Shown: positions 1 through 33,143 of the stretch, in pieces
Position numbering within the stretch: the first letter of the stretch is position 1
Layout of the letters: each line of letters opens with the position of its first letter
Source: Candidatus Omnitrophota bacterium
GTDB taxonomy: Bacteria; Omnitrophota; Omnitrophia; Omnitrophales; JACQLI01
Direction: 5' to 3'
Length of the DNA: 64,000 nucleotides
Assembly: GCA_016179745.1 (NCBI GenBank)
Contig: JACPCP010000017.1
Location: forward strand, 2,626-66,625
Position numbers and translations under genes: made by a program
The notes under the pieces: generated by a model
Told to the model about the DNA's origin: nothing
Seen by the model: only the letters and a program-made list of their open reading frames with translations
Databases searched by the model: none

Positions 1-2
1 AG

Positions 3-4000: not shown

Positions 4001-4630
4001 GCAAAATTGCGCGTGATGGTCAAACGGATTTTGAGAAAATACGGCTACCCTCCGGACAAAGAAAAAAAAGCTACCGAAACCGTGCTTGAGCAAGCGACTT
4101 TACTCTGCAAGGATTGGACAGAAAGTTCTGTTATTCCTGACGAGGGCAAACCCTTATTTTTCAGTGATGTGATTCCGGATGGGAGCATCAAAGAAGGGTA
4201 TCTTCCCGTTTATGACCTTCGGGTTGCGGCGACGTCTTTTAAAGAACAACCCACGCCCGAACCCATCGTCTGGAAACCTGTAAAAAATCGGAAATTAAAT
4301 GGAGATATGTTTATCGCCCAAGTCGTGGGTAAGTCGATGGAGCCTAAGATTCCTGACGCGAGTTTCTGTCTCTTCCGGTTTGAGCGCGGTGGTTCTCGAA
4401 ACGGTCTTGTGGTCCTTGCGGAATCGCGGCTTGTTACCGATCCTGAAACCCATCAGAGCTTCACTGTGAAGCGCTATAAAAGCGAAAAAGAATACTTCCC
4501 CGACGGCCGGTGGCGGCACAAGAAGATTACTCTTTCGCCTGACAACAAGGATTTCAAAGACATTGTTCTCGAAAACGTGAACGAAGATGACTTTCGTGTC
4601 GTCGCCGAGTTTCTGGAAGTGCTGGCATAA
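1010..4630 (+). CDS. hsdR: Type I restriction enzyme R subunit (HsdR) with extra C-terminal S24/LexA-like peptidase domain
   Basis: The N-terminus [25 protein letters not shown] and [19 protein letters not shown] form a nuclease core. The DEAD/helicase motifs are [43 protein letters not shown] and QAIARVNR. I prefer the ATG at 1010 to the ORF-track start at 986. Confidence 0.9.
1331..1363 (+). repeat. In-frame mini hairpin element (ATTGCTTCGCCCG-GAAA-GCGGGCTCGCAATGAC) inside hsdR
   Basis: Nested inverted repeats attgc/gcaat and gcccg/cgggc. It encodes [11 protein letters not shown] directly after the codons R-A-E (1322-1330). Related copies lie at 16930-16956 and 29353-29391 in the giant ORF. 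Confidence 0.55.
4198..4627 (+). other. S24 (LexA/UmuD-type) peptidase-like domain fused to the HsdR C-terminus
   Basis: [14 protein letters not shown] resembles the LexA 'PLxGxVAAG' linker. VVGKSMEP at 4328-4345 matches the GDSMEP catalytic Ser motif. FTVKRYK carries the catalytic Lys, and the region ends in a beta-rich tail. It lies beyond the usual end of the HsdR core (...[14 protein letters not shown]). Confidence 0.65.
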
Positions 4631-4679
4631 ATGCATAAACACAAAATCTTCATCAGTGGAGCGCAGGAGGAATTGAGCG

Positions 4680-5762
4680 ATGACATTTAATCCTAAATTT
4701 ACGATTACCCCGAAGATCAATAAAGCGCTCGTGGAAATCGAGCGCGTGCGTGGGTTTTTGGATGCGATCAAGCTCAAGGAGGATTGGATTAGCGACATGC
4801 AGAAGCAGGCGCTCATCCTTGAGTCCCACCATTCGACGCATATCGAAGGGACGGCGCTCAGTCTTGAACAAGCCAGGAATATTTTAGAAGGTAAAAAGGT
4901 TGCCGGGGTCAGCCGGGAGGATGAAAGGGAGCTTTTGAATTACAAGAGGGCGATGGATTTTATTTCAAAGTATCTCGGCAAGGACGATCCGGTGACCGAA
5001 GGCACGATCCGCGAACTCCACAAAATCACTGTCATGGGCGTCCGAGGCGGACAAGCAGATCCGGGCAATTACCGGAAGATTCAGAATTATGTCGTCAATT
5101 CCAGGACCCGGGAGGTGATTTACACTCCGCCGCCTCCTTTAGAGGTCCCGCATCTTGTGAAAGAGTTTACGGATTGGCTGAAGAATGCGGAGGAGGTATC
5201 GCCTCTTCTGGCGGCCGGGATCGCTCAATTCCAATTCGTTCACATCCATCCCTTTATTGACGGCAACGGCCGGACAGCCCGTTTGTTATCCACTCTGATT
5301 CTCTATAAGACCGGCTACGATTTTAAGCGCCTCTTCACCCTCTCCGAGTATTACGACCAGGACCGGCCGGCTTACTATCAAGCGATTCAATCCGTGCGGA
5401 ATCACAAGATGGATATGACCGTGTGGCTGGAATATTTCGTCGAGGGACTCCACTCGCAGATGAAGGAAATACAGGCTCGAGGCGAGCTCCTAATCAAGGC
5501 TGAGAAAATTTCTAAAGTCTTCGCTCAGGAAGCGCTGAATAAACGGCAAGAAAAGGTCCTTAGGCACGTCTTCGTTCATGAACGGATTACGAACGAGGAA
5601 TGCCAAAGACTTTGCGGGAGCATCAAGCGCACGGCTACTCGAGACTTGACGGGCCTTGTTGTAAAAGGCATTTTGGAGAAAAGGGGGGAGAAGAAGGGCA
5701 CTTATTACGTTTTTTCACCGGATTCCATCCGAAAAATAAGGGACATTAAGGGACAAGGATAA
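4680..5762 (+). CDS. Fic/DOC family protein (AMPylase-type) with C-terminal winged-helix-like region
   Basis: Carries the canonical Fic motif HPFIDGNGRTARLL. The N-terminal helical region has SHHSTHIEGT. Confidence 0.9.
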   Translation: MTFNPKFTITPKINKALVEIERVRGFLDAIKLKEDWISDMQKQALILESHHSTHIEGTALSLEQARNILEGKKVAGVSREDERELLNYKRAMDFISKYLGKDDPVTEGTIRELHKITVMGVRGGQADPGNYRKIQNYVVNSRTREVIYTPPPPLEVPHLVKEFTDWLKNAEEVSPLLAAGIAQFQFVHIHPFIDGNGRTARLLSTLILYKTGYDFKRLFTLSEYYDQDRPAYYQAIQSVRNHKMDMTVWLEYFVEGLHSQMKEIQARGELLIKAEKISKVFAQEALNKRQEKVLRHVFVHERITNEECQRLCGSIKRTATRDLTGLVVKGILEKRGEKKGTYYVFSPDSIRKIRDIKGQG

Positions 5763-13920: not shown

Positions 13921-15879
13921 ATGGGAATCCAAAAATACCGCTCAAAAACCGTCGCTTTTTTTGTCGCCCTTTCCTTCATCCTTTTAAATTGTGGTGCGAA
14001 TCTTCACGCCCAAACTCCGTCCGGAGAGGCTCTCGTCTCTCGATTCCCATTAGTCGATGAGGCCCCAATCAGCCTTCCGGCGGAGCTGGGTGTGATTCAG
14101 GAGACCTACCAGGGCCATTCCAATCAAACCGTGATTTACCTTCAGGATGCCCACACCCATCCTGAGGCGCAGCGGTCCATTCAAAAAATCATCGATTACT
14201 TCCAGAGGCGCCACGGACTTCAGCTCGTCACGGTTGAAGGGGGAGAGGGCAGGCTCGACCCTCTTCTTTTCCGGGCCTACCCCGGGCGGAAAAATCTGGA
14301 GTCGGTCTTCCGGGATTATCTCGACAAGGGAGAACTCTCCGGCGTGGCCGCAGCCGCCGTCCTCAATGAAAGGCCGGCTGAGTATTACGGGATCGAAGAC
14401 CGGAAACTCTACGAAGAAGGGATGCTGGCCTATCTTGCCGCCGACCGGAAAATCCCGGAAACGCTCGAGAAGCTTGACCGCCTCCAAGGCGATCTTGATC
14501 GAAAGAAAGAGCGCCTTTACTCTCCGGAACTTTTGAAGCTGGACCGTGCAATCAAAGAATTTGAAGCCGAAAAAGTACGATTAGCAGAGTTTCTGGCCTT
14601 CCTTGCAGGTTACGAAGGCGGCGTGCCTTCCGTCATTGCGAGCGAACGAAGTGAGCGAAGCAATCTTAAAGGTTATCCCCACCTCTTCGCCCTGATCAAA
14701 GAAATCGAGACGGAAGGATCGGATTCAAAGGCCGTGACGGCTGAGATCCGTTCGCTGACCCACGAGCTCAAGCCCCTCCTCAAAGATAAATCCGAACTCA
14801 TGTCTTTCAATGAGAACGAGCAGGCTTACCAGACCGGCCGGCTTTCGGCCCATGCCTTCGCCCATTTCCTCCTTGAAATGGCGGGGCAGCTTTATCGCCA
14901 CCTCGGTAGCGGAGGCTTAAGCCTCCGCTACCTTAAGGCAAATTACCCTGCCCTTCTCAAAGCCACCGAACATTTCCCCCTCCTCAAAAAGATGCAGGCC
15001 CCGGTTTTCTTCGAGGAGCTCGAATCGTATCTTGCCGAACTGAAATCCCGCCTCTTTCCCAGCGAAGCGGCGGAACGTTTGGACGCACTCGATCAGCGTC
15101 TTGCCCGGATGCGGAGTCTCGTCCGAATGGAGTTGACCCGGAAGGATTGGGAAGCGCTGAAGAGAGACATCGCTGTCAATCATCGTCTTTCAGCGGAGCC
15201 GTCCCTTGACGACTTTGTCGCTTTTTATCGAATCGCCGAAGCCCGTGAGAAAGTCTTTGTTGAAAAAATCCAGAAGCTTCTCGAAAAAGGGGACCGGGAA
15301 ATCCTCTTCCTTTCCGGGGGGTTTCATACGGAAGGAGTCACAGAGGCTTTTAGGAAACAAGGTCTGTCTTACGTTTTGATTACGCCCCGGATCACCAAAA
15401 GCCCCGAAGAAGGTCTTTATCAAAAAATGATGCGGGGAGAGGTCTCGTGGAAGAATTACTTCAAGGTCCGGAACGGCTGGGTCAATCTCTACGAGGCGTT
15501 TGCCGAGGCCACGGCGGATCGATTGGCCAGGCGGCCGGCCGAAGGGGAGCGAAGAAAAATCCTCCGGCTCTGGCGCGATGACGTGATCAGGAAATTATCC
15601 GGGGAGCGGAGGATCGAGCAATCCCGGGCCTACACCCGTTTCATCGAGAGAGCGGCGCTTGAAACCGTTTCGCCTGAGGAACTCACCCGGCTTCAATCCC
15701 TCTGGCGCGCCCGCCTCGACCGTTTCCTCACCGGTCTTAAAGACCTCGTCACCCAAAACCGCCTCACCGAGCAAAACCTCCTCCGCCTCTTCGCCAAGCC
15801 CGCTTCAATGCCCGCTGCGGTTCTTCCCCTCTTTCCGACTTCTCGACTTCCAATCGCCCTCGATCGGATCACCCATCCC
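13921..15879 (+). other. Block 0: secreted N-terminal module of unknown function (~650 aa)
   Basis: A signal peptide is followed by VIYLQDAHTHPEAQRSIQKII...LVTVEGGEG and LFLSGGFHTEGVTEAFRKQGLSYVLITPRI. The block ends at variant junction RSELR. I do not recognise a named family. Confidence 0.4.
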
Positions 15880-18800
15880 CGGTCCGAGCTAAGGAGTGAC
15901 GAAATAAAGGAGGGTAGGCCGAGAGGAGTGGACTGGCAAACTTTTATAGAGGGGGAGATCAAGCGAAGCCCTCCCTGGAAGGACGATCCCGCTTATCAGG
16001 GTACGTGGAAACAGGCCGCGCTGGGAGGAACACTGGGCGTTACGGACCTTTTGATGGATCAAATTGTGAAATTACTGGAAGGAAATGGAATGCTAACGAA
16101 AGAAAGACGTTTACTCCCCGGGCGTGTTGGCCTAGTTCTAGGATTTGGTAGATCCGCGAACGAATTATCAGAGGCTAAACACTGGTTCAACTTGGAGGTT
16201 GTCCACGGTGTAGAGTGGGTCGATGGACGGGTCGAAGATGCTGCAAAGGGTTTTGCAAACCTGGGCCTTTCTCCCCGTAATTTTAGGCTGCACCACGAGA
16301 GCATGGAAGAGCTCAAAGACACAATCGCCGATGAATCCGTCGATTTCGTATATGCAAGGGCTATTAGCTATGATTTTAAAGGAGCGTCCCGAAAGTTGGG
16401 ATTGGAGATCCTCCGGATTCTAAAGCCAGGCGGAATATTCTACACAGATGACAGTTCCCCTGAACTGAGAGAAGCCCTTCGAGAGCATGGTGAACTCTTG
16501 GGAGGACCAGACATCTCTGGAATGCCGGGATTCACAATATTTAAGAAGCCGGATCACGAACAATCCTCCCGCGCCGAGGTGCGTTCCGGCGTAGTTCACC
16601 TCGCCGCCGTCCGAAGGGGTAGCCGTCAGGGTGGGAGAGGAATCCTCCCAAATCGTCATGAAAATGAGAGCGAGAGATCTCTGCGTCAAAGGCGTCGGGA
16701 GCTGGAAGAAAGGATTTCAGTCCTGAAAGATAGAATCGTCCAGTGGGAGGAAGATCGCGGCCTGTTACTCAAAAGAATTTACGACTCGACTTCTCCCGAA
16801 CAAAGAGCCACGGTCTTAAACAATCACCAAGAGTGGGGCGATATCAATCAAATCCTGATCTGGAAGAGAAGGGATCTGAAAGCGCTTCAGAGAGAATTGG
16901 AGAACCCGTCAACATCCTCCCGCGCCGAGCCTGCTTCGCCCAGAGGGCTTCGCAGAGCTGAGGTGCGGGGCGAGGCCTCTACGAAGCTCGAGCGAAGTAG
17001 GGCCGAGGTGCGGAAAAGGAATATCAGTGGGTTTGGGGACGCTGCCGGTGGGAATCCAAGTAAAGAAGTGTTAGAACGAAGGCGATCAGAATCAAAGTGG
17101 CGACAACCGGAATCATCAGTTTACCCCTCCTTTCCGGGCGGCGTGAATAAGGATTCCAATCCCGATACACAAAATGCCCAGCGAGGAAAAGGTGAGACGA
17201 AGATAGGTCGGCAGCTTCTCAAAAAAAGAACTCGCGAACCCGACCGTAAGAATCGCCTTTCCCATATCAGCAAAGTTCTTGCCGACAAATTTCTTCGTGG
17301 ACTCATCAAAGGTAATCATACTTGGTTTCCTCTCAGATTCCCAGCCTCATCCTTCAGAAGTGGGAGTATAGGGAAAAATTCAAAAGAAGTCAATATAGAT
17401 TTTCATAAAAAACATAACCCATTTCCCACTCCTTTCCGCGCCGAGGTGCGGGGAGAGAAGACCGCAGAGGAAAGGATACGTAGGCTTTATTCGTGGTTTG
17501 ACCAAACTGAGAGTTACAAAGAGATGAAACGTGTGCTGAAACAACATCCCAAGGTAAAGATATTCGGGGGGGCAAACCAGGTTTCAGTCTACTCGTCAGA
17601 GAGCGCTCTTCCCATCATGACGTCGCCGAGTGAGACTCTTCGTCAATATCTGATGCAGGATCAAGGATTGGAGGGAGGGCTTTCCATTAAGGAAATGGAG
17701 CGCCTCAGCGGCGAAGTTTTGGGAGAAGAGATCGAGACCCTCCTTACGGTCTTTACGACCGTCTCTTTTAAGGAGGCCATGGAGTTCATCGAAAACTTTT
17801 CCGTCCGCCCACCGACTGAAGCAGAGATGAAATTCTTCGAGCACTTGAAGCGATATGTCGATGATTCGACCCAAGTGAGCCAGGAAATGGCCTATCAGGC
17901 AGCCATTTACCATCTTGCGGGACGCGACGGTTCCTACGCCCCGCTTCTTGATTATGTGAATCACCTCCTCGAAAACCGGGGGAAAAATCCGAGGATTCAC
18001 TCCTCTTCTCCTTCTCAAGCCGTTCAGTCTTTTGACGAAGTCAGGGAAATAAAAATCTGGGGGGTTAAGGAAGGTCTTGCCACCCACGTTTCCAGAATCC
18101 AGGTAAGGCTCCAAAACCGGCCGCCGGTCTATTTTGCGATGAATGTCGCCCAGGATTTACATGGGTCGGCCGACACTCTTCGGGATGCCCATCGTGTCTT
18201 GGAAGAGGACTACGAGTGGGATCCCCGTTACATCATGGAGCCCCTGGGGCTCGGCGCCGGCAAGGCGAAACGGTGGGGAGAAAGGGTGGTTTCGATTCCA
18301 ATCTCGGTGGGGGAATGGCTTGAGGAATTTGAGGAGCTTCATCTGGAGCCGGAGAGCGATACACGGTTTGAAATTTGGCGGGAACAAGGAAAACGGAAGG
18401 AAATCGTTGACCGGGAAGGGTCGAATCAGATCTGGAGCCAGATTGCCTATCTTCGAACGCTCTATTCCCGCAAGACCGCCGACGGGGTCATTTTGGCGAG
18501 GGGAGTCGTCTTGGCCGGAGATTATGTCGGGCGGAGAGGAAAGGACGGCCGGTGGGAAGTCATGCAGGTCTGGCCCCGAAGGAAGAAAAATGAGCGATAC
18601 CCCGATCCTGCAGCTATCATTCTAAACGGCCTTCTTTTGCAAGAACTCGATTTCCTCAAGCCCAACCCGGACGTGCCCGCTTTGATCTTTTGGTCCCGTT
18701 TTGATCTTGCACTAGGGTCTGTCTTGGCCGCATTAGAGGATCAAGCGGCCGGACCCAAAAGGAATTCTTTGGAACCCATTGCCCGAGAAACTTTGAATCT

Positions 18801-21800
18801 TCTAAAAGGAGCTCAACAGGCGTTACACGACATGGGGGCCGATCCCCAAAACAAGATTCCCGGGTTCATAAATTATCCAGAAGAGCGAAAAGGGGCCCTT
18901 CAACTTTGGCTTGAGCTGGCAGAAGAAACTTTGAAGAGGTTTACAGAGACTATCGAAAAAGGAAACCGGGGAGAAGCTCTCGAGAGCAGGCAAACGCCAA
19001 CCCTCGAGTGGTTTGAGGCGGTCGGGCATCCTTTTTCAGTGGATCTCAGATTTGGAGCCGGGAGATTGACTCTGAGTCAGCGGGAATCGGTTGAACGTGA
19101 ACTCGGTATGCAAATGGTCGATTCGGTTCCGAGCATGGCTCAAAAACATGGGTTGGACGTCCCCTCTTTGAAATTAGATTGGGCGATTCGTCTGGGTCTC
19201 GAGAGCTTATTTCATCCGAGAAGTCCGCAACAGGGAAAATGGACCTATGAAAATTTAACGGCCTCCCTTTCAAAAAGGCTGGGGAGACCTGTTTCTGTTG
19301 ATGAGATTCAGGAGATCGATTTTTGGGCCCCGAAAGCGGGGGGCGTTATGTTGGTGAACCGTGCCGTAGTGAAACTCAAGGGTGAAGATACGCCGGAGTT
19401 TCTGGTTGTGGATGTCCCGAAGGACCTAGGGCCTTCGAGCGAGCGGGTCAAACGGGAGTATGAAATTCTGAAGCGATGGCATGAGCGTCTTCCCGATCGG
19501 GTCATGGAACCTTACAAGTTGATAACCCTGAGGCTTCGAAATAGCCGCTTTCCTCAAAAGACTTTTCCGCTGCACATCATGATCGGCCGGTGGTTTGAAG
19601 GGTATCTCGAGACCCACATTGTTCCAGACGGGGGTAGTTTTCGGGTGCAAGTGATTCGAGAATGGGGTGACCGGGAAGGCCGTGGCCTTAACGCAGTCGT
19701 GCTCGATTCTGAGCCATCGGACGAATTTTGGGCTGAGATCGCACGTATGAGGACGGTTTTAAGTGATTTCGAAAACGGGACCGTCACCTCGGGTCTCTTT
19801 GCGATTAACGATGGGGCATTCATTGCGGGCTTGGATGGTTCCAATCAGTTGATTCGTGACAATCGAGGACGCCCCGACATAAAGATTATTTCTGTGTCTG
19901 AGCTCCTCCCCTATCCGGAAGAGGTCTTTCCGCTCCTTTTGACCACCGATCAAGCGATGTATCACCGTGACGCCACCCGTCCGGAGGCGGGACGTTTGGT
20001 TCTTTGGAACCGTCCCGAAAAATCCTTTGAGGCCTTTATCCAAGGATACATTGACCAAGTCGGTGAGGGCCTCTCGGGGAAGGATCGGGATGAAGCTGTC
20101 AGGAAACGGCGGGAAGAGGCGCTCCGAATTCTCGAGAAAACCCGTCAACTAAAGCCATTGCAAGAAGGAGGGATACAGATGCGCAATGGAACCCGAGTTT
20201 TCTTTGCCCATCCGCAGATAGCAGGCGGCGAGGTCTTTCAGCCTCTTTTAGAACGGGCCCTGGCGATCCTGCCAAGTTTTATCGAGGCTCAGAGACGGAT
20301 CCTTAAGTCTGGGATGAGGTCCGGCGAAATTGACATTCGAGCGGGAGACATTTTTCGACATTCCAAGAGTCAGAAGATTTTCATTGTCACCGAAGTCGTT
20401 CAAGGCCCTTTGACCGCTAAAATTCAGGACGGAGAGACTGAAGAGACCCGCACTTTAGACCGCAATTCGATCGTCCAGTTTCTTGCCGAGCACACGATTA
20501 CAAGCAAAGCCCGCCGCGCCGAGGTGCGGAACGTGGAGGCAGCGAATAGTCTGACGACTACAAGAAGGGAAAAGAGGGCCCGGCCGGAACGAAATCGCAC
20601 GGGGTTCGGTTCCATTGTCGGCAAACTGAGCTTTAAAGAAGAGGAGTATCGGGACCAACTCATCTCCCGGCTTCATGCCCAAGGACTGAGCGGCCAAGAG
20701 GTCCGTGATTTGGCGAATGCGCTTGTTCGATTCAAAGAAGACTCGCTGGGACAGCGGGCTTCTTTGTTTGCGGAAGGAGAGGGAATAAAAAACATCCTCC
20801 CCTCCGGAGAGTTTGATTTATCGACCTTTGTCGAGCGTCTCAGGAAAGAAAGACAGGCTCATTCGGAAGAATTGAATCCGAATGGGAAGCCCTTGTTCAC
20901 TGACAGAGAAATTCATGAGCTTCTTTTCAAAAGCTTGATTCCCGTTTCCTGGGTTCACGCATTGCGGCGAGAAGGATTGTCAAAGCATAACCTTCTTCGG
21001 GCGTTTGCAAGCTGGGCCGACCCCCTTGGGACTTGGCAGAAGAAAAAGACGCTCCGGGATGATTTGAAGAAGTCTGGTTTTTCCGACAGCGAGGCTACGA
21101 TTGCCGTGATGAACTGGGAACATCCTCAGACGACTTGGAAAAGACTCAGGATAATCCGGGATCAACTGGCGAGCCATCCTCAAAATAAACTGACGCCCAA
21201 AGAGGCCACCATGATCGTAATCACCTGGGGCGACAGAGCGCTTGAGATTTGGAACAAGCGAAGGCGGATCCGGGATCAGTTTATGAGACTTGGACTTGGG
21301 AAGAGCAACTCAAATATCTTAGCCCTCAGGTCGCATCCGGCGGAAATGCTGCGGGCCGTGAACAAGACAGCAGGAAATCTTACACGGGCAGGAATCCGAA
21401 AATTTAAAGAGAACTTTCGTTTTCTCCTCCAGCGCAGCCATGGGGTGGTTCGCCGCTGGCTGAAAGACAGCTCGGACTGGCCCAATCGAAAAATCAACAA
21501 GCTCTTGCGGCCGCTCGGCGACTATCAAAACCGGTATGGCCGTTCTCAACGAAGCAGGGCCGAGGTGCGGACCGCAGAAGGGGGGATGGAGGGGAAGATG
21601 GGGCCTCAACGTTTCCCTCGCCACCTTCGCCCTCCCTTATGGGTTCCGCCAGTGATCTCAGATTTTGTCACCGGGACGGACGGTATGAGGGGAAGCCGGC
21701 CCGTGTCTCCCGCAAGATGGCTGATGGAGATGAAATTGATGTCCGAATTTTCCACTTTGAGACAGAAACTTTTCAACGGGATCGTTGAGCGGCTCGGGCT

Positions 21801-24800
21801 GGATGAGAGCGAATGGACGGAACTGATTCGGGTCATTAACCTGGAATTCGACGAACTTCTTCAAGGGATGGCTGAAGATCATCGATCGCTCCGTAATGCG
21901 GGCTGGGAAGCGGGGATGTCGAGGCGGGACATTTCGGTTTCGGTCCGCAACCTGGATGAGATTAAAGGACTTGTTTTTCTCGGGCTCCACCGGCAAGCGC
22001 AATCGCTGATTGAAAAATATGGCAGCGAGTCTCTGGATGGGGCGGTGGATACTTTGCGTGATGAAATAGCCGGGAAGGCCCCGATCGTCAACTTCATTCT
22101 TAGTTTTTGGGAGCCGGCGTCATTGATCAGGCTAAAAATAAAAAGCCCTGAGCAGTTTAAGCTCCATTTACGACAGATTTCGGAGGTTCTCGATTGGGAA
22201 TTTCAACAGATCAAGGCAAGGGAAGAAAAGTGGATCCAATCAAATTACCTGGTGCGGCTTGAGGGAGGAACGGCCCTCTTCAAGTTTCTGAATCAATTTA
22301 TGAACAGACTGAACCGTCTGGGTCATTCCGACGAGGGCATCGATCGTGCCCTGGAAGGGTTTGAAGACAATCTCTTCCCCCGTTCCGAGGCGAGAAGCAC
22401 ATCTGAAGAAACGGATTCCGATTCTGCCTATTTTGAAAAGCTCACGGGACGTTGGGATCCTTTCTGGAGAAAGTCGTCAGGACGGGAGAACGAAGGGGCC
22501 TTCGCCGGCTCGTATCCCCCGCAGGTCCAAGAGTGGGTGCTTGGGCGGATCGCTCCGTGGGCGGCGCATCACGGAGCGGGGTCGTTTGTGGATTTGGGGT
22601 CGGGAATCGACCTTCATTTGCTTCGTATCATTCAGAAGCAGTTTCCGGCGTATTCTCTCCATGCCCTGGATGTCGTTGAGCCTTCTCTCATTCCGCCCGG
22701 TTTTCAAAACGGGATCCCTTATTGGCGGTCTTTGATGGAGAGGACCCCCTTTGAAACCGGCATGTTTGACGGGGTCCTGTCCACGTTTGCCGCTGAATAC
22801 GGCCGGCTTGAGGAAATTTCCCGGGAGATTCTTCGCATTCTGAAGCCTGCCGGCCTGGGACTTTTGGTGATCCACCATCCCGGTTCCGGAATTGTTGTTG
22901 AAAGGGAAAGAGACGACCAGCGCATCCGTCAAGCGATCCCCCTTCTTCAAGGGGCTTTGTCCCTTCTTCAAAGAGTTGACTTTAATCTTCTGGAGGGCCT
23001 GGAGACGGAAGCAAAAAGAAATGCCGTCCTCTTCCACCGATTGCAGGGGCTCTTTGAAAGCCTGCGTGAAATACAAAGATCGCCTCAGCCGGAGGCAATC
23101 GAGGGACTCAAAAAATCGCTGCAGGAAAGTCTTGAAGCGGGCCCCTTGACACTCTGGGGTCACGAACAGCTTCTGGAGAATATCAGTCGTTTCAAAGTGC
23201 CCCGTGATGTCGAAGAGTTCTTTTCAAGATTTGGATTTTTAGCGCAGGCGACGCTTCTCCGCTGGCCCCGGACTCCTTTCCCCGGCCTTGCTTATGGAGT
23301 TGTTTTAATTCCGGCGGCGGCCGCTCATGCCTTCCGTGCCGAGGCCTCCCGCTCCGAGGCGAGAACGGTTGTTGACGATCTAGATTCGGGAAAGATCGTG
23401 CAAATTGGCAATCGCCTCCCTTCTTATGTTTTCAAAGCCGGACCCAAACGCCTGGTCATGCTTTCTATGGAAAGATTGAATCATATTCGAAAGGAGCACC
23501 AGCCGGCCCCACCAGGAAAGGACGGATTCGAGAAAAATGCCGACATTCCTGACCTCATCAAGAAAGCTTTTCAAAAAGCAGCTGAATCAGCCGTTTCCGC
23601 CAATCGTTTCACCGTCGACTTGGAAGAGCCAATTGGAACCCAGACAGATCGTGAAGGGGCCTCCTATCCGTCCACCAAGATGACCGTTGCGCAGGTTGTT
23701 CTGAAGCGGTCCGGATCGTCAGGGCGGGGTGACCGTAGGAACCCGCGGGATTGGAAGGCTGCCCAAGAGGTCTTTGAGGCATTCGGGTCTGAAATGCCCA
23801 GAGATCAAAAAATACATTTTGTCTTGACTGCTTTTCCGGGCGAGGAGAGAAAACGCCGCGGGTCCCATTCTATGCAAGAAAGGTCAGCCCGTTTGTTACG
23901 ACGGCAGATCTTATCCAGCAAATCTTCTTCCCCCCGCTCCGAAGTGCGGAGTCAAAGCACATCTAAAGAAGAGTCTTTGATCGCTGAGGATTCTGCGGTC
24001 GCAAGGCTGTTTGCAGGAATCGGGTTCGATCTGAGGGTGCCACGTTCTGCGATGCCACGGGGACGAGAGGGAAAAGATGTTTTTCGGGTCCATTGGGTGA
24101 TGTTGCCGGATGAAGCGAGAGCGAGACTTCATCAAATAAGTCGTCTGACTAGTCGTCCCAAGGGAGGCAAAGCCGAGCTTTACCTATTTCAACCCCTACC
24201 GGGTTATAGTCCCATTCTGAGTCGGCTAAAGGGCAGCAAAGATACACCGCTTTTCATTCTCTTCAAAGGGGAGCAGCCCCTCTTTCTGGTTGTGAGTCAT
24301 TTATCATGGGATCAGCTCGACTACACCCATCAGAAGGATTACCTCCGGACGGCGAACGTAGGTGCAAATGTTGCAAGAAAAGAGGTGTTTGCATTGGCTT
24401 ATCTGGTGGAAGCAGCTGAGAAGACAGAAATGACTGAAAGTAAACTTCGCGTCATCCAAGAGGCCGGTAAGTTTTTAAGCCACTGGTTGGGGACAAGGGC
24501 AAATCACTCGTTGAGTGTCATGACGAGAGGCGATCTTTTTAACCGGTTCTCTACAGAATTTGGACCGCAAAATCGTGTTTACATTTTCCCGGGCGCCTTC
24601 GATTACACCTCGATCTCAAGCCAAATCTTCCTCTCGGGCATCCGACCCGAACCGGGTGATTCGGTTCTGGATCTAGGAACCGGGACCCTTATCGGCGCCG
24701 TCAAAGCGGCTGAAGTCCAACTTCAGGCAGGACAGGAAAATCCCGATTCGGTCGGTGAGATTTGGGCGGTCGATCAGGACCCCTTGGCAGTTCAAAACGC

Positions 24801-27800
24801 CCTGTTCAACAGGGGTCGGTTGCCCCAAGAGGTGGCAAGCAAGATCGAGGTTCGGCAGAGCGATCTCTTTCAGAATATCCCGCCGGATAAACGTTTCAAC
24901 CGAATTTATTTCAACCTTCCGGTCGAAACAGAAGGTGCAAAGAATCCAGCTGATTCGAGACTTGCGGTTGACCCCAAAGTGTCTGATCCCGGATCAAAGT
25001 TGCTGGAGAGGTTGCTTAAAGAATCGAAACCATTCCTAAAACCGGGAGGAACCCTCGAAGTGAGCCAGGGTGACTTGCCACATTTCTGGCGACGGGTGTA
25101 TGAAAACGGATGGTTGCCTACGGTGGTTGAAGGATACCAGGTTTCTCGGGGCATGCATCAGCGAGCGCAGATGGAAAAGGGGTTGCCGGATTCCATCCGG
25201 GTCACTCTCGTTCCATCATCAGCAACCGAACCAACCCCTATCACAGACCAGTGGAGAGCAATAGAGAAGCTTCACGATAAGCTCTTGTCTCAGCCCGGGC
25301 TGTCAGATGAAGAAATGGCAGCTCTCCAGGAGATGGAACAGCATTTGCGGGGAGAGGTAGCGGATGTTAATAGTTTCCTCCTGCACAAAGCAGTGAGGTC
25401 GTTTCAGGAGTGGGGCCGTGGCAACTTCGAGTTTGAATACCCAATCGGTTTCACGAAGTTGGAGCGGCGCGCCGAGGTGCGGGAGGAAGGCGGTGTAGAG
25501 TTAAAAGTTAAAAGTGAAAAGGAAAAAGAAGAAAGAAAAAAGGTGCAAGGGGAAAGAGGAGAGGTGGCGGAGGCTGATATAGAAGGATTAAGAGGAGCCG
25601 ATCCCTTCAAGTTTGACGGTCTTAAGAGTCGACTGGTCGGCAAAGCGCCTACGGGCGTCGAGAATTTCGATTCCGGCGATCCGTCCGGCAGAATCAAAGT
25701 CTACGGCGACTCCTTCAGCAACGTGTTTCGTGATAACAGTCGTTTCTTGGAACCGGATGTAGAGCGCATCCACCTTTGGATCGTAAGTAATCCTCACCGC
25801 TTGATCTCCTTCGCTTCAGAAATAATACACGTAAACCGTGACTACGACAATCTCGGACTCTTCCTCGGCAAATATGGGCCGGACTTGTTTGGTCTTGTAA
25901 TGCTTCCCGTTCCACTCTTTTTCGTAGGGATAATCCTTCTTACACTCCAGCCTCCCGAGCTCGGCCGGCTTCCAATCAGCACTTCGGATCGCCTCAAATA
26001 CCTCGGATTCGCCCGTGCCCCGAAAGGCAAGCTGCCGTCGGGCGTGGTCGCTGATAAAAATGGGTTTCCTAGGATGGGCGGGCATGGAGGGGAAGTTAAT
26101 CCAACATTGCTTCAAAGTCAATCTGAATTTAACTTATATAGAACTCCCCGCCGCGCCGAGGTGAGGGGAGAGGGGAAAGACTCACTTGCCGACCTGAGGA
26201 ACTTTGCAAGGATCGTATATATCGCGGAGGAGAAAAAGGAGCCAGACAAGCGGGGTTTGACCCTGTTTATGCGAAGCCGGAAAAATTACCCCTTTCCCGA
26301 TAGTCGGGATTTGGCCGTGGCGGCGGGCCTTTCGCGCACAAGCAGTTCTCGGATCCGGAATGTGGCCAAGGTGCATTATGGAGGGATGGCCAATCTTCAG
26401 GAGAAACTCGGTTATCCAATCAAGGTCAAGGAAGGGGCGCGCTCACTCAAGAGAAGGAAAAACGTGGTGAGGAAGATCTTTGAAGCGGTTCGGAAAAGGG
26501 AGCCTCAAGATGAGGAGGAACTTCGTCGATTTGAGCAGGCCGCCAAAGGGAAAAAAAGACCCCCCGCCGTTTTTCAGATGGGAGAAGACGTCTACCGAGC
26601 TATTCGGATCCATCACGGAGGCGCAGACAAATTTTTCCAAAGCCTCGGTTATGGGCCGAAGAAATCACTTGGCAGTTGGCAAAACTTTCTTGAAGCCCTT
26701 TTTAAAGATTTGCATGGGAGGAATCCGTCTCCGAAAGAACTCAGGGAGTTTCGGAAGAAAAAAAGTCGAAATCGTGTTCTGAAGAAAGCAGATCTTTCAT
26801 CCAGGGTTTTTAATGCCGCCCAGAAATACTACGGTGGAATTACCGGGGTGGCGGGCCGTCTTGGTTTCAAGCTATCGAAATCGTACGAGGGCCGCTCTCT
26901 TGAGGATTGGGGAAATTACGCAAGGGCACTGTATCGGTTCCTTTATGGAAGGAACCCGAGTGAGCGCGCATGGAAGCGGTTCATAGACCCCGCGGTGAAG
27001 AAAAAAGGGAGGCTCCCTCGCTACGAGGATATCCCCTCGGCTCTCAGGAAGGCATTGAGGCATCATGGAGGAATTGGAAAGGCGGCGGCAAGCCTTGGGT
27101 TTAACGATCAGGGCCCAAACCGAACCCGCATGCGTTATTGGCCCAATCTCTTTGAACGGCTTGAACGCCTCTGGCGGGAAGAAGGATATGCCGGGCTCTG
27201 GGAAATGGTGGAAAAAAGTCGGACTACCCGCCGTCTTCGCAAGGCCATTGAGAGTGATTACCCCGGTGGGTTGGCGGGGGTGAAGAGACGGTTCCTTTAC
27301 GAGATGGGGGATCGGGCGGTTCTAATTGCTGAGGAGCTCCTTGGCGAACGGGCGTTTGAAGAGCTTGAATTTTTGAAAGGAGCCTACGATGAACTTGTGA
27401 AAAAAGAGAGGCCCCTTCCTCTTTCCGAGGCGGCGAGAACCCAAGTCGACCAAATGATCTTACGGGCATTCGAAGAAAAAATGGAAATTGACGACCTCCT
27501 TGAACGTTACCGCCTTTCATTTAATGGGAGAAGAAACTACCCCACGCCTGGGGAGGTGGACCAGATGGTCCAAGATGCAGTCCTCAACGGAAATTTCTCA
27601 AATCACCTCAACGCGGCGGCGGACCAGAAAGGAGGCTTGCAGCGGCTGACAGCTCACCAAAGATTGGCTCGTGTATTGGAGTTGGCGAGGGAATCGGAAG
27701 CGACAAGGGCCGCCCTCAAGCATGCCTTCGAGGGCTTGGAACCCGCCGGACGAGAGGGTCTTTTGCGCCGGTTCGTTAAAAGAACTTCGATCGGCGATTT

Positions 27801-30800
27801 GATTCTCGGGATCGCCGGAATCAGTTTGCCTCCCGACGATTTGGAGAGCAGAGTCTCGCAACTTCCCGCTCGTCGCATTATTTTTGTTGATCCACGGCAA
27901 GCATTGAGGCTTGCCGATAAGGCCCAAATTCGTTCGGAGGCCCGGCAGAAACGCACAGAGCGTTACCTCGAAGCGTTTCAAGGAGGCCGGACCTCTTGGA
28001 GTCAGTTTCCATCCCCAGAGAGGGTCCGACTAATTCGAGTTGCCGCGGATGAACTGGGCAAGCCGCCAGGAGAAATGAATACCAGGGATTTTGCCCGAAG
28101 GATTCAGTCCCTCGCTTCACCAAAGTATCCTTACGGCAAGATGTTGGCAGGGCTCTTAGGGCATTATCGCAAGCCCGGCGAGCCCGTGAGTGTGGCGCTG
28201 AAGAGACTTAAGAAGAGATTGCTGGGCATCAACGACTCCCTCCCGCAAAAGAGGGTCTCTTTTAGAATAGGTCTCGGAGCGCTGATGAGGAATGAAAGCT
28301 TATCGCTTCAAAGAATTCCCAAAAAAGCTCAACGTCGCGCCGTTGAATTAATCGCTGGAAAAATGGGTAAAACCCCCGGTCAATTGCGGACCCGTGACGT
28401 TAGGAAGAGCAGCACATTGAGGCGTCTTGTGAATCATTATTGGAAGAAGGAAGAGGGGGAGCTGGCAGCGCTTAAAAGAATGAAAAAGACTTTGGGAATC
28501 TCTCACGAGCCTACCGGAAACGACATTTTCTATGTTTGGAAGGAAAAGTATTCGGACTGGGACCAGGTGAAGGAAATTTTAGGCCTGAATGGGCCACTTC
28601 CACTCAATGAGGAGCAACTCATTAAAATTTCCGAGGAAGAAAGGAAATCCCGAGGAACGGGGGAGAAATGGGGATTTAAAGCATTCCAAGAGGCACTGTT
28701 CACCGAGGTCCGGCGAGGGAATGCGGCGGCGCGAAGCGCTTCCCTCATCTTGCATCAGGGTCTAATCTGGATGGTGGCGAAAAAGGTCTGGCGAATCTCA
28801 AAGAATTTTGGCCTTCCAAAGGGGATCGCATTTGAGGATTTGATCTCGGTTGGAAAGATTGTCCTGGCGAGGGCCGTGGAAAAGTTCAGCGAGAAAAAAA
28901 GGCCCTACCTCTTCTCCTCCTATGCCTATGGCTACCTTAATGCCGCGATGGTCCGGCTCGTAAAAAGGGAGAGAAAGAGGGAGGAAAAATTTCGGGAGAT
29001 CCTGCATGAGCCTTTGAACGGTACAGATGGAGCGACAAGAGCGAGCTTCATTGATGAGGAGAGGAGGATGATTTGGAGAGGAAGGAAAAACGCCAGCCTC
29101 GAACCGTCTGATCTCGTCGACCTCAGACCGGCTGTCGTGACAGCCCTTAAAGACGCAGGCTTCTCAGAGCGAGATATTCGTATCTTCTTCGCTAGGATTG
29201 CTGGCCAGAGGAGGGACGAGATCGGGCTCGAGCACCATATCAGCGGGGTGCGGGTTGGGCAGATTCATCAGAAGGCATTAGGTGTGGTGCAAAGAGCCTT
29301 GGCTGATGGCGTCAATGATGGCGCAAGTTACCGTAACCGCGCCGAGGTGCGGTCTGCTTCGCCCGCCGTGCTGGATGGCGGGCTTCGCAGAACCTGGAAC
29401 ATGGTGTGGGAGGGGCCAGGGGAAGCAAAAGGGCAGGAGAACAGGCAGGTTACTGGTGATGCTTCAGGAAGTAGCGTTCGAGAAGAATCCACACGATCAT
29501 CGCCAGAATCAGGAAAGTTGCCCATACCATGGCAAACATCTTACGCCTCCTCTTTGATTCGGACGTCAGCAAGAGCAATTCCGGCAATGAGAAGCATCGG
29601 TGTTACCATACTGAGCGTTATTCTAAGCCCAATTCCCGTGATTTTGTCAAAAATTCCACCGATTGCCATAGCGATGACGAAAGTTTGGAACAGTGTCAGG
29701 CAGGTCTTAGAGAGAGCCTCGAACCTCTTTTCGGTCCAAAAGGAACGTTTCATGATTGCCGGAAATATATCAATAATTTCCATAATTGTCAATGATGAAC
29801 TTATCCCCTTCAGAGAGCTGGTTCCGCTCTTCCACCGCGCCGAGGTGCGGGAGCCTTCCCAAGCCGGTGTGCCGGTGCAGCAGAGAAAGGATCTGGACCG
29901 CCTTTTTGAGATCCTTGATCGGAATTACTTTCAAGAGGGCGCCTTTCAGGAGAGAATCTCGAAAACCTTGAGAGACCTACCTCGAATTGAAAGCCAGTTT
30001 CCCGATGAATCGGGTCATCCCGATAGCCCCAATTGGAGTGAGAGCATCGCCTTTCACGAAAAGGAAACTGCCCCCGAAATTCTTGAAGCTTTAAAAAGCC
30101 GCCGATTAAACGGCGAGGATCTCACCGGCTTATGGTCCCAGATGGTCGTGGGTTTTCAGATCGATTACTTCAGGCAGGTTCATTCGTGGTTCAAAGTACC
30201 CTTGGAATCTCAAGGTGAGAGAAAAGCCGAGTTGATCGCCGAAATGGGATATTTCCGAACTTTGACCGCATTACTCCTTGCCCTTCAGACGGATCTGGCC
30301 AATGGTCGAGGTGTAGATTTGGCCAAAGAGATTTTGTTGAAACTCCATCAGAAGATCGTCGAAGCCGACCAACGAGGCACCAACCTCTTTACTCGAGCGG
30401 CTCAGACTCTTCCTGAGATGGAGTTGATTGTCACCAGCCTTTATGCCCATTCCCCGACATCGGCCGAACAGCTTCTTTTAATCGGCCTGGCTGAAGAGAA
30501 ATGGCCGGAGCCCCTGCGGAGTGAAATGTTGGCGCTTAAGTTGATACACAAGGTGAATCACCTTGAAATGATTTCGACGATTTCGGACAAACCTCCTATC
30601 AAACTGTATGAAGAGCTTGAGGACCTCCTTATGCTTTCGGACAATGGGATTGATTTCAGAGAATTAAAGGCCAAATTCGAGCCTGTCCTCACGAACTCGG
30701 GAAAGGGAGACCGTCTCGCCCAACAAGCGGTAGGGATGGTCTTACTCTTTTCCCCCGTTCTTTTCCTTGTCCCAAAAAAAAATAGGCCCACGTTTTTCAA

Positions 30801-31974: not shown

Positions 31975-32020
31975 CGTCCATCTAGCTTAGGCCCCAGCCT
32001 TTTGGTAAACTACACAGCCG

Positions 32021-33143
32021 ATGGAAATTACCCCCCGGGAAATCAAGGAAAAGTTTGGATCTCTCCAGAAGAAACTGAGAGAGATCAGGGGGTATCTTTG
32101 ACCTCGATGCCAAGTCCAAAGAAATAGCCCGCCTCACGGACGAAATGGCCCGGCCCGGTTTCTGGGACCAGCAAAAATCGGCCCAGGGAACGGTAGAAAA
32201 ACTTAAAGCGCTGAGACGGACCGTCGAACCCTTTGAGAAATGCGAGAAGGAAGCCGGGGAAATTGCCGAGCTCCTCGAAATCTTCGACGAATCCGACGCA
32301 GCCTCCTTTAAGGAAATCCAAGAACACCTCAATCGGCTTGAACATGAAGTCGGCGCCCTCGAATTCCAGCGTCTTCTTTCCGACCCCCTTGACAGCCACA
32401 ATGCCATCGTGAGCATCAATTCGGGCGCCGGCGGCACGGAATCCTGTGACTGGGCCGAGATGCTGCTCAGGATGTATCTTCGGTGGTCGGAACAGCACGG
32501 TTACAAGTCGAGGACCGTTGATTTTCAAGAGGGGGGTGAGGCCGGCATTGACAATGCCACGTTTCTGGTCGAAGGCGCCTACGCCTACGGTTACCTCAAG
32601 GCCGAGTGCGGTGTCCACCGTCTCGTCCGGACTTCCCCCTTTGATGCCAACAAACGCCGTCACACTTCGTTTGCCTCCGTCGATGTGATCGCCGAAGTGG
32701 AGGATGTGCCGGAAGTCGAAATCAAAGAAGCCGATATCCGGATTGACACCTACCGGGCGGGCGGGGCCGGAGGCCAGCACGTCAATAAAACCTCGAGCGC
32801 TGTCCGGATTATCCACCTTGCGACGGGCCTCATTGCGCAATGTCAGAACGAGCGCTCCCAGCACCAGAATAAGGAAGTGGCGATGAAAGTCCTCCGGGCC
32901 CGCCTTTACGAGCGCTACTTGAAAGAGCGGGAAGCCGAACTCAAATCCAAATACGGCGAGAAAAAGGAAATTGCCTGGGGCTCGCAGATCCGCTCCTACG
33001 TTTTTCATCCTTATACAATGGTCAAGGACCACCGCACGAGTGTGGAGACCTCGAACGGCCAGGCCGTGATGGACGGCGACCTGGACGAATTCATCCAGGC
33101 CTACCTCAAAAAATTTGTCGGCGACCGGGAGAAAAAAAAGTAA
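32021..33143 (+). CDS. prfB: Peptide chain release factor 2 with programmed +1 frameshift
   Basis: ORF0 is [26 protein letters not shown], followed by an in-frame TGA at 32099. Shifting +1 gives [24 protein letters not shown]... and continues to [16 protein letters not shown] and the GGQHVNKT (GGQ) motif. Confidence 0.92.
32087..32102 (+). promoter_or_regulatory. RF2 autoregulatory frameshift site
   Basis: AGG GGG TAT CTT TGA C: an internal SD-like AGGGGG, the slippery CUU U, and a UGA C stop context. Confidence 0.9.

Follow-up and report, generated by a model that had tools for sequence, protein, structure and literature searches.

A junction between modules of a giant Omnitrophota open reading frame (ORF) has probably been invaded by a miniature palindrome resembling REP/REPIN elements or MITEs, most likely in the form of a whole 72-nt double unit (we put the probability of this reading at about 0.6). 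The junction, J3, lies in the window, that is, the whole 64-kb stretch of DNA that was analysed. An original prediction had already placed a mobile palindrome in this junction. Membership of a dispersed family supports that idea in part, whereas the unit, its boundaries, its flanking duplication and its targeting do not appear to be as proposed. The ORF and the two parts of J3 are as follows.

13921 to 31593, plus strand: host ORF of 5,890 codons, Omnitrophota-type and multi-module, with a lipoprotein-like signal peptide.
16921 to 16929, plus strand: left half of J3, CGCGCCGAG (R-A-E), which together with the upstream ATCCTCC gives a 16-nt match to junction J2.
16954 to 16968, plus strand: right copy of J3, AGA GCT GAG GTG CGG (RAEVR), part of a REPIN-like spacer.

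Between its modules the ORF has junction peptides of the form R[AS]E[VAL]R, about 17 to 19 in number. Pfam recognises three of the modules as SAM-methyltransferase-like and one as sigma-70 r2. Its plus-strand frame has the top codon score in most segments. The frequency of the junction motif is far above chance: with up to two mismatches, the junction 14-mer occurs 11 times in the window, where 0.78 would be expected, and 10 of these matches are on the plus strand within one ORF. All R[AS]E[VA]R peptides in plus-strand frame 0 (16 of 16) fall inside ORF 13921-31593, and junctions can overlap, as in the double junction RSEARREVRE at 31183. The possibility that the junction is a DNA repeat only was rejected, because contig L004 spells RSELR with other codons at each occurrence, and synonymous junction variants occur both in the window and in contig L210. 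A literature search for the junction peptide motif returned nothing relevant.

The split in J3 is real. TCC TCC CGC GCC GAG is read at 16916-16929 and GTGCGG at 16963-16968, and exactly 33 nt, or 11 codons, separate CGCGCCGAG from GTGCGG (CCTGCTTCGCCCAGAGGGCTTCGCAGAGCTGAG, 16930-16962), as originally described. The 16 nt ATCCTCCCGCGCCGAG at J3 are identical to J2 at 16564-16579 (repeat family D1), and deletion of the 33 nt does restore the canonical junction, CGCGCCGAGGTGCGG. In the hairpin proposed within the insert, GCTTCGCCC-loop-GGGCTTCGC, the two arms are not inverted relative to each other; GCTTCGC is a direct repeat. The true pairing joins CTGC to GCAG and GCCC to GGGC, with a 3x3 TTC/TTC internal loop between the two stems. 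Neither the RNA fold of the 33 nt (-11.7 kcal/mol, z = -0.33) nor the DNA fold of a 44-nt stretch (z = -0.02) is better than those of shuffled sequences. The GCTGAG at 16957-16962, taken to be a target-site duplication of GCCGAG, does echo that hexamer, but the two agree at only 5 of 6 positions. Together with the preceding AGA and the following GTGCGG, it forms a complete in-frame RAEVR codon set (16954-16968), and the predicted stem joins its T to the A of the GAG upstream. Treating the 33 nt as the natural unit also leaves unexplained an inverted second unit, which lies 21 nt downstream and pairs with the first.

The statistically supported palindromic unit is 72 nt long and spans 16930-17001. 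Its components and flanks are listed below.

16930 to 17001, plus strand: REPIN-like or MITE-like palindrome of 72 nt, made up of unit 1, a spacer and an inverted unit 2, pairing from first to last base.
16930 to 16956, plus strand: hairpin unit 1, 27 nt, CCTGCTTCGCCC-AGA-GGGCTTCGCAGA, with CTGC/GCAG and GCCC/GGGC stems and a TTC/TTC internal loop.
16957 to 16977, plus strand: spacer between the inverted units, GCTGAGGTGCGGGGCGAGGCC.
16978 to 17001, plus strand: hairpin unit 2, inverted, 24 nt, TCTACGAAGC-TCGA-GCGAAGTAGG, with the stem-TTC-stem design of unit 1.
16924 to 16929, plus strand: GCCGAG, left copy of a perfect 6-nt direct repeat.
16999 to 17013, plus strand: J4, AGG GCC GAG GTG CGG (RAEVR), in which the final codon of unit 2 supplies the AGG.

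Both units have 4+4 bp stems around the TTC/TTC internal loop, and unit 2 is unit 1 inverted (CCTACTTCGC..GCTTCGTAGA against CCTGCTTCGC..GCTTCGCAGA, 9 of 10 positions per arm). The outer end of unit 2 carries GTAG (16997-17000), in place of which GCAG is found in unit 1 and in the second window copy, at 29353. Folding of the 72 nt gives -36.3 kcal/mol with z = -2.42, a score reached by 5 of 200 shuffled sequences. When 116 nt of context are folded (z = -2.22), pairing extends to the outer CCGCGCC and GGUGCGG. These z-scores are moderate, at about -2.4. The right copy of GCCGAG lies at 17002-17007, inside J4, and perfect copies of the hexamer flank the 72 nt. Removal of 78 nt (the 72 nt plus one GCCGAG copy; 26 codons) yields a perfect junction too. 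Whether counted as 33 or 78 nt, the extra DNA is stop-free and inside ORF 13921-31593. The GCCGAG flank is part of the recurring motif, and two neighbouring junctions could mimic a target duplication. An in-frame RAEVR in the spacer is likewise unexpected in foreign DNA, unless the element picked it up at a junction. J4 has a 22-nt twin at 21550-21571 (repeat family D13) that contains CGAAGCAGG, which is CCTGCTTCG in exact reverse complement; this sequence precedes the junction at 21556.

The 27-nt hairpin unit, with the pattern CTGCTTCGCCC-N-GGGCTTCGCAGA, is a dispersed repeat, as had been suspected. Besides the second copy in the window (29353-29391), at least 120 contigs in more than 40 metagenome datasets carry its exact arms; the loops measure 3-21 nt, and host GC content ranges from 36 to 74%. 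The architecture of the unit is conserved in 125 copies. In complete metagenome elements the arms are nested (A-B-B'-A') and use the words found in J3-J4, TCTACGAAGC and GCGAAGTAG being the B' and A' arms, and many family members carry GTAG in A' or in the loop. A tRNA-adjacent element in contig L195 has a homologous spacer, GCGCCGAGGTGCGGGGCGAAGCAGG, with a junction 16-mer inside it. The hairpin family is very widespread in environmental bacteria and absent from Rfam, in which the window and 17 family loci matched only tRNAs and one unrelated sRNA. A 44-nt subfamily was considered as a riboswitch or leader and rejected as such, the downstream genes being mutually unrelated.

Other properties first attributed to the insert do not extend to its family. 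A flanking duplication is missing at 29353, and long flanking repeats accompany just 2 of 16 complete metagenome elements, both of them tandem element-plus-flank duplications. Specific targeting of the junction is contradicted by the family copies, which are mostly intergenic, most lying after tRNA CCA ends or adjoining ribosome-binding sites. Nor is frame preservation intrinsic to the element: only 6 of 125 unit lengths are divisible by 3, and keeping the frame therefore looks like the work of selection, not design.

The second copy in the window follows a junction directly.

29338 to 29391, plus strand: canonical junction (29338-29352), a T (29353) and the second hairpin unit (29354-29391), without flanking duplication.

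The arms of this unit are identical to those at J3 in 23 of 23 positions. It has a 15-nt loop and a 9-bp inner stem in the RNA fold (z = -2.72), and its local score is 73, against 39.9 +/- 6.2 for shuffles. These two loci are the only ones in the 64 kb with the hairpin unit, and both are inside the giant ORF, the second lying 58 nt downstream of a paralogous antisense operon. In an unrelated contig, L206, an RGEVR junction is followed by a decayed unit and then by GCTGAGG, and L206 and 29338 have in common GAGGTGCGG-T-CTGCTT.

In related contigs, orthologous junctions differ in whether they carry a palindrome, and the palindromes there are other ones than the J3 unit. The junction at 26152 is simple in the window, and 66 extra nt occupy the orthologous site in L204, L206 and L208. 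A simple junction in L208 corresponds to one with 24 extra nt in L205, in a background that is 94% identical, and between L205 and L208 a GAG to TCG change perfects the palindrome. Filled junctions in related loci always hold their palindromes in frame. Because simple and palindrome-filled forms exist at orthologous sites, the junctions are places where palindromes have been inserted repeatedly with the frame preserved. L204, L206 and L208 have RGEVR as a variant of the junction, and L208 also has a double junction, RPEARAEVR. Independent assemblies from other samples share this junction and cassette architecture.

The palindrome at J3 adjoins a cassette of genes on the opposite strand.

17024 to 17319, minus strand: antisense two-gene mini-operon, encoding a 67-aa membrane protein (17116-17319) and a 30-aa peptide (17024-17116).
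17365 to 17393, minus strand: sigma-70-type promoter of the antisense operon, TTGACT-17-TATACT, 10 of 12 matches.
17437 to 17451, plus strand: J5, canonical junction, at the right-hand end of the antisense cassette.

The stop codon of the operon is 22 nt from the 72-nt palindrome. Homologues P0122-P0124 show 49-66% identity, and one of them is in an ordinary locus, L211. The cassettes at 17014-17436 and 29353-29835 have a common gene layout, with the hairpin unit in the equivalent place, and their proteins are too diverged for BLAST. A single open frame through an antisense cassette is unremarkable, as a codon-aligned antisense frame is open in 25-36% of cassette-sized windows. Pure chance was nevertheless rejected as the explanation of the open frame, which recurs in four independent contigs, while an ordinary-locus control, L207, has 44-56 stops. 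A canonical intrinsic terminator was rejected as well, since no U-run follows the hairpin; a terminator scan of 16930-17001 on both strands found nothing, and a single weak site on the minus strand (16920-16899) is no more than chance would give.

Contig and homologue searches of genome and metagenome collections found no empty J3 allele. A homologue search with residues 659-1031 returned only P0001, which covers 404-720 and stops before J2, and peptide-pattern scans of the J3 flanks in genome and metagenome contig collections found nothing. Among the contigs with homologues of the 67-aa protein (L209-L211), none extends to the end equivalent to J3/J4. Exact look-ups of the antisense proteins gave no match on record, and no population contigs across J3. 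Separately, the Logan contigs that include the upstream uvrC (L001-L003) all stop at 14660, inside another palindromic repeat.

If the 72-nt element did invade J3, the junction would originally have been canonical, CGC GCC GAG GTG CGG (RAEVR), in a multi-module giant ORF. The double unit (two inverted 24-27-nt hairpins and a spacer) and a copy of GCCGAG would then have brought in the 78 nt. Alternatively, two independent 27-nt units may have entered a tandem RAEVRGEVR in opposite orientations, each with a 5/6 duplication, in which case the 33 nt first described would be the first insertion. Arrival might have been by transposition or by copying of single-stranded hairpin DNA, for which a RAYT-type Y1 transposase is a candidate; none of the ORFs scanned in the 64-kb window was recognised as a transposase, RAYT or integrase. 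Retention would have been favoured by an insertion that is in frame, stop-free and within a linker, and the terminal AGA or AGG plus the duplicated GCNGAG would rebuild an intact RAEVR. The strong stem-loop 22 nt downstream of the antisense operon could end or stabilise its transcript.

The extra DNA could instead be a single 27-nt hairpin with a 6-nt duplication (33 nt) between GAG and GTG, unit 2 being separate or both units being insertions into RAEVRGEVR. We consider this unlikely. It has in its favour that removal of the 33 nt gives an exact J2-type junction, and that the region can be written symmetrically as GCCGAG[27 nt]GCTGAG-GTGCGG-GGCGAG[27 nt]GCCGAG-GTGCGG, from which the removal of both blocks leaves SSRAEVRGEVRKR. 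The required RGEVR also exists as a variant, and overlapping double junctions are known from L208 and from 31183. However, each duplication would then contain one mismatch, against a perfect repeat when the 72 nt are taken as the element, and independent insertions would have made the two units complementary only incidentally. By themselves, the 33 nt form no significant hairpin, and the T of GCTGAG, since it pairs within the stem, looks like element sequence, not a mutated duplication.

A different proposal dispenses with insertion into the junction: the hairpin would be a resident 3'-end structure that arrived with the antisense cassette, in the order junction, hairpin, two small membrane-protein genes, promoter, junction. 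J3 would have arisen from 'junction + T + unit' by a 6-nt in-frame deletion of GTGCGG, with local duplication or template switching. The equal gene layout and unit position of the two cassettes agree with this, as do the sequence common to L206 and 29338 and the local growth of junction palindromes seen between L205 and L208. Yet the cassette proteins have diverged beyond BLAST while the arms are identical, which points to recent acquisition or strong independent constraint. The arms also occur in very different genomes without such a cassette, and the perfect GCCGAG flanks and inverted unit 2 are left unexplained, making this origin distinctly improbable. That the whole pattern is chance in GC-rich, low-complexity coding sequence, or mis-assembly at a repeated motif, is very hard to credit. 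The fold z-score is only about -2.4, and the region is linker-like and rich in R, A, E and S; but the 16-nt identity with J2, the exact GTGCGG, the return of exact 23-nt arms at 29354-29391 and in those 120 or more contigs, and the repeated architecture in independent assemblies already contradict it.

As an invading palindrome, the J3 element can be compared with several known systems. REP elements and REPINs, which are hairpin-forming REP doublets, are mobilised by RAYT Y1 transposases (PMC3116915, PMC3337134), and GTAG-tagged REPs carry a GTAG or CGTC tetranucleotide at one end (PMC3733652). The J3 unit is similarly an imperfect palindrome of 24-27 nt, within the 20-40 nt of REPs; the J3-J4 units are inverted across a short spacer and form one long hairpin, as in REPINs. 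Of their outer ends, that of unit 2 has GTAG (16997-17000) and that of unit 1 does not. Singlet (29353) and doublet are both present, and the family usually lies just after genes or tRNAs. Unlike REPs and REPINs, the J3 element is within an ORF and in frame, and its 6-bp direct-repeat flank is not a product of RAYT or IS200-type transposition. REPINs are also usually lineage-specific, whereas exact arms of this unit span hosts of 36 to 74% GC. REPs reach tens to hundreds of copies in a genome, mostly outside genes; the 64 kb contain two loci of the unit, both in the giant ORF.

Bacterial MITEs include Correia, RUP and ERIC. The J3-J4 element resembles them in its terminal inverted repeats, CCTGCTTCGC and GCGAAGTAGG (9/10 pairing), its perfect short flanking duplication, its length below 100 nt and its lack of coding capacity. 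In contrast to MITEs, we know of no parent insertion sequence for it, the duplication is missing at 29353 and in most family members, and the duplicated hexamer at J3 belongs to a motif that repeats anyway. Terminal inverted repeats with a target-site duplication, which define MITEs, are thus not present at every copy. Rickettsia palindromic elements (RPEs), reportedly described by Ogata et al. in 2000 as 'selfish DNA in protein-coding genes', offer a further parallel: a palindromic repeat, in frame inside a protein-coding gene, adds a short peptide in a tolerant place, and selection on surviving insertions keeps the frame. The sequences are unrelated, however, and the lengths differ, RPEs measuring about 100-150 nt and the present elements 27-72 nt. 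RPEs (RPE-1 to RPE-n) are confined to the Rickettsia lineage, while the host here belongs to another phylum and is Omnitrophota-like, its best prfB match (69%) being to a Ca. Omnitrophota MAG. The present insertions are also concentrated at a single, recurring linker motif within a giant multi-module ORF.

The locus also recalls integron arrays, with promoter-bearing toxin-antitoxin and small-gene cassettes and imperfect palindromes between them. As in attC sites, the outer boxes of the junction (CCGCGCC/GGTGCGG) are inverted, and the length of the centre varies, from 15 to about 93 nt. Unlike an integron, the whole array is in one ORF on the opposite strand, and the site encodes a conserved peptide. 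An integron attC was rejected, as no attC cores (RYYYAAC/GTTRRRY) occur in 16915-17013 and no IntI in the window. A broader idea, which we hold only tentatively, is that the junction may be at once a linker peptide and a DNA/RNA hairpin (CCGCGC-CGAG-GTGCGG), serving as a recurrent landing or recombination site that adds antisense cassettes and palindromes. The promoter-bearing cassettes would be DUF4258/DUF2283, HicAB and small membrane-protein operons, only in-frame and stop-free arrivals would survive, and the giant ORF would double as a cassette array, J3 recording one event.

The giant genes of Omnitrophota have been characterised as concatenations of multiple enzymes. One preprint (10.1101/2023.11.21.568195) says that they have no known cleavage points, and another (10.64898/2026.06.07.730766) sets out architectural classes of giant genes and leaves junction motifs unmentioned. 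To this picture, the locus adds a conserved R-[AS]-E-x-R junction that separates modules, real opposite-strand genes between junctions through which the giant frame stays open, and the repeated gain of in-frame palindromes at those junctions. If general, this would provide a concrete, testable route for the growth of giant genes and for their tolerance of mobile DNA, and the 'selfish DNA inside genes' of Rickettsia would have a counterpart in another phylum, in the form of a much smaller element.

J3, one of the R-A-E-V-R-type junctions between modules of the giant ORF, is split at 16921-16968, where its coordinates and letters agree with those of the original prediction. Removal of 33 nt restores the canonical junction CGCGCCGAGGTGCGG, and a 16-nt stretch of J3, ATCCTCCCGCGCCGAG, exactly matches J2. 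These 33 nt are probably just part of the natural unit at J3. All four arms of the repeat family described below are present between J3 and J4.

Features of the J3-J4 region (window coordinates)
16921-16929, + strand: left half of J3, CGCGCCGAG
16930-16962, + strand: interrupting block, CCTGCTTCGCCCAGAGGGCTTCGCAGAGCTGAG, 33 nt (11 codons)
16963-16968, + strand: right half of J3, GTGCGG
16930-16956, + strand: unit 1
16957-16977, + strand: spacer
16978-17001, + strand: unit 2, unit 1 inverted, 9/10 match per arm

The hairpin originally proposed for the 33 nt was overstated. Pairing does exist (CTGC/GCAG and GCCC/GGGC around a TTC/TTC internal loop), but the RNA fold of the 33 nt alone is no better than that of shuffles (z = -0.33). 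DNA folding of a 44-nt stretch at J3 gives z = -0.02, and GCTTCGC forms a direct repeat within the insert. The suggested target-site duplication, GCCGAG/GCTGAG, can be recognised in imperfect form, with five of six positions in agreement.

The hairpin arms belong to a dispersed family. CTGCTTCGCCC recurs at 29354, one base past the junction at 29338, with a 15-nt loop and then GGGCTTCGCAGA downstream; local alignment of this copy to J3 scores 73, compared with 39.9 +/- 6.2 for shuffles. A scan of JGI metagenome contigs with the pattern CTGCTTCGCCC-N(3-21)-GGGCTTCGCAGA matched at least 120 contigs, which come from more than 40 datasets and range from 36 to 74% GC. Among the matches listed, loops measure 3 to 21 nt and units are mostly intergenic, with 19 of 125 copies directly 3' of a tRNA CCA end; other copies adjoin ribosome-binding sites of unrelated genes. 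In complete members the arms are nested, with A CTGCTTCGCC, B GGCTTCGCAGA, B' TCTACGAAGCC and A' GGCGAAGTAGA. An Rfam search matched no family. Unit length is a multiple of three in just 6 of the 125 copies listed, so the element, contrary to the original prediction, does not itself keep frame, and flanking duplication is not general among family members. Copies in L093, L097, L099, L118, L122, L133, L150, L195 and other contigs begin 1-2 nt past the tRNA CCA end. Two of these contigs, L150 and L195, carry a second copy of the final 15-20 nt of the tRNA, placed after or before the element, so that tRNA end and element form tandem units.

At J3-J4, the 72 nt of 16930-17001 pair from first to last base (-36.3 kcal/mol, z = -2.42), and folding within 116 nt of context adds a further pairing, between the outer CCGCGCC of J3 and GGUGCGG of J4; z-scores of the folds are moderate. 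Perfect GCCGAG repeats (16924-29 and 17002-07) flank the 72 nt, and removal of 78 nt leaves a perfect junction, TCC TCC CGC GCC GAG GTG CGG AAA. An equally tidy account invokes two insertions of opposite orientation into RAEVRGEVR, both with duplications that match at 5 of 6 positions, and would explain the symmetric pattern GCCGAG[27]GCTGAG-GTGCGG-GGCGAG[27]GCCGAG-GTGCGG. A single 72-nt event is preferred because the flanks are perfect and because L195, a tRNA-Leu-adjacent element from another metagenome, carries GCGCCGAGGTGCGGGGCGAAGCAGG at the same spacer position. In either orientation, the AGA or AGG that ends a unit and the repeated GCNGAG-GTG-CGG after it encode R-A-E-V-R, and the junction peptide therefore survives insertion.

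Junctions also bound antisense cassettes. In three segments of the giant ORF, the + frame was scored as non-coding and genes lie on the minus strand.

Antisense cassettes within the giant ORF (window coordinates)
17014-17436, - strand: 67-aa and 30-aa membrane peptides, own promoter TTGACT-17-TATACT
25483-26151, - strand: DUF4258/DUF2283 toxin-antitoxin-like pair, genes 25816-26121 and 25588-25797
29353-29835, - strand: operon with the layout of 17014-17436

The right boundary of every cassette is CGCGCCGAGGTG[CA]GG; the left boundary is the same canonical DNA in two cassettes and the J4 variant AGGGCCGAGGTGCGG in 17014-17436. Right ends of two cassettes (17415-17457 and 26130-26172) share ~77% identity over 43 nt, continuing past the junction (TAAC..ACTCC..CCGCGCCGAGGTG.GGGGAGAG), and the conserved boundary may therefore be longer than the 15-nt junction. 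Homologues were found for the 17014-17436 proteins, one of them at an ordinary locus. Its operon and that of 29353-29835 were judged paralogous by eye; BLAST between their proteins gave no match. The DUF4258 toxin has 511 homologues, the closest on four short contigs of other samples (L204, L205, L206 and L208). Opposite their toxin-antitoxin genes, one frame with junction peptides is stop-free contig-wide, against 4-23 stops in the other five frames and 44-56 per antisense frame at an ordinary DUF4258 locus (control, L207). These contigs share the window's layout, in which the pair lies antisense, flanked on either side by a canonical junction, and the + frame is open; L205 has a HicAB-like pair as an additional adjoining cassette.

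Simple and filled sites, the kind of evidence asked for at J3, do occur in these relatives, at other junctions and with other palindromes. The cassette right boundary is simple in the window (CGCGCCG-AGGTGAGG) and filled in L204, L206 and L208 (CGCTCCG-[66 nt palindromic DNA, 22 codons]-AGGTGCGG). The left boundary reads RPEARAEVRK in L208, while L205, at 94% identity to it across 585 nt, is longer by 24 nt, which produce a 51-nt near-perfect palindrome (RSEAR-IEERIPL-RASVRK). In L206, a decayed unit 1 and then GCTGAGG come directly after junction RGEVR. In-frame palindromes are recurrently found at junctions.

Two further repeats lie in the window. At 21535-21571, CGAAGCAGG precedes the junction at 21556 and is the exact reverse complement of hairpin arm CCTGCTTCG; the stretch is identical to J4 with its flank at 21 of 22 positions and resembles a solo or decayed unit in inverted orientation. 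Another palindrome, GTCATTGCGAGCGAACGAAGTGAGCGAAGCAATCTT (14633-14668), lies in frame in the first module and encodes VIASERSERSNL. At least one Logan contig with the upstream genes, L001, stops inside it at 14660, and L002 and L003 both carry the same 738-nt stretch of the giant ORF at a contig end, a pattern suggestive of a repeat with high copy number in those metagenomes.

The J3 element is a dispersed repeat, a doublet hairpin of two units inserted in frame and stop-free between perfect flanking repeats. It was probably copied in single-stranded form, as a hairpin element of the REPIN or MITE type; no transposase, RAYT or integrase was found in the 64-kb window. It would have been retained because the linker tolerates only in-frame, stop-free arrivals. 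The antisense operon might benefit from the element as a 3' stem-loop; its stop codon lies 22 nt from the J3 palindrome, and 58 nt separate the 29353 copy from the stop codon of the operon there. A terminator scan ruled out the J3 hairpin as a canonical terminator.

The giant ORF is surrounded by ordinary bacterial genes: LptE, S20, MurJ and UvrC upstream, and RF2, SecA and Lnt downstream. The listed start of the prfB (RF2) ORF (31982-33143) falls at profile position 12 of the PCRF domain, which fits the programmed +1 frameshift usual near the 5' end of prfB. The left end of the window (1-5762) has lower GC (0.44-0.49) and looks like a defence island, encoding a type I restriction R subunit fused to a Peptidase_S24-like C-terminus, a Fic/DOC protein and an SDH-type protease.

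The junction motif occurs 11 times (0.78 expected), 10 of them on the + strand, and this frequency is not due to chance. All R[AS]E[VA]R peptides of the + frame fall inside one 5,890-codon ORF (13921-31593), whose modules include three methyltransferase-like domains and one sigma-70 region 2. The 'multi-enzyme' giant protein class has been described (10.64898/2026.06.07.730766), in a text from which the words motif, junction, linker and antisense are absent; the module-dividing motif R-[AS]-E-[VLA]-R is likewise unmentioned in the two preprints on Omnitrophota giant genes that were searched. This motif divides modules in the window (13921-31593), in L004 (1-9813) and on the reverse strand of L210, a further relative with five RAEVR junctions, mostly in the same codons, and a homologous antisense cassette. 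In L004, the Ca. Omnitrophota MAG with the best prfB relative (69% identity), a frame upstream of prfB stays open for at least 3,271 codons and encodes RSELR four times, in different codons each time. Across the lineage, the junction thus characterises 'multi-enzyme' giant proteins at the level of the peptide.
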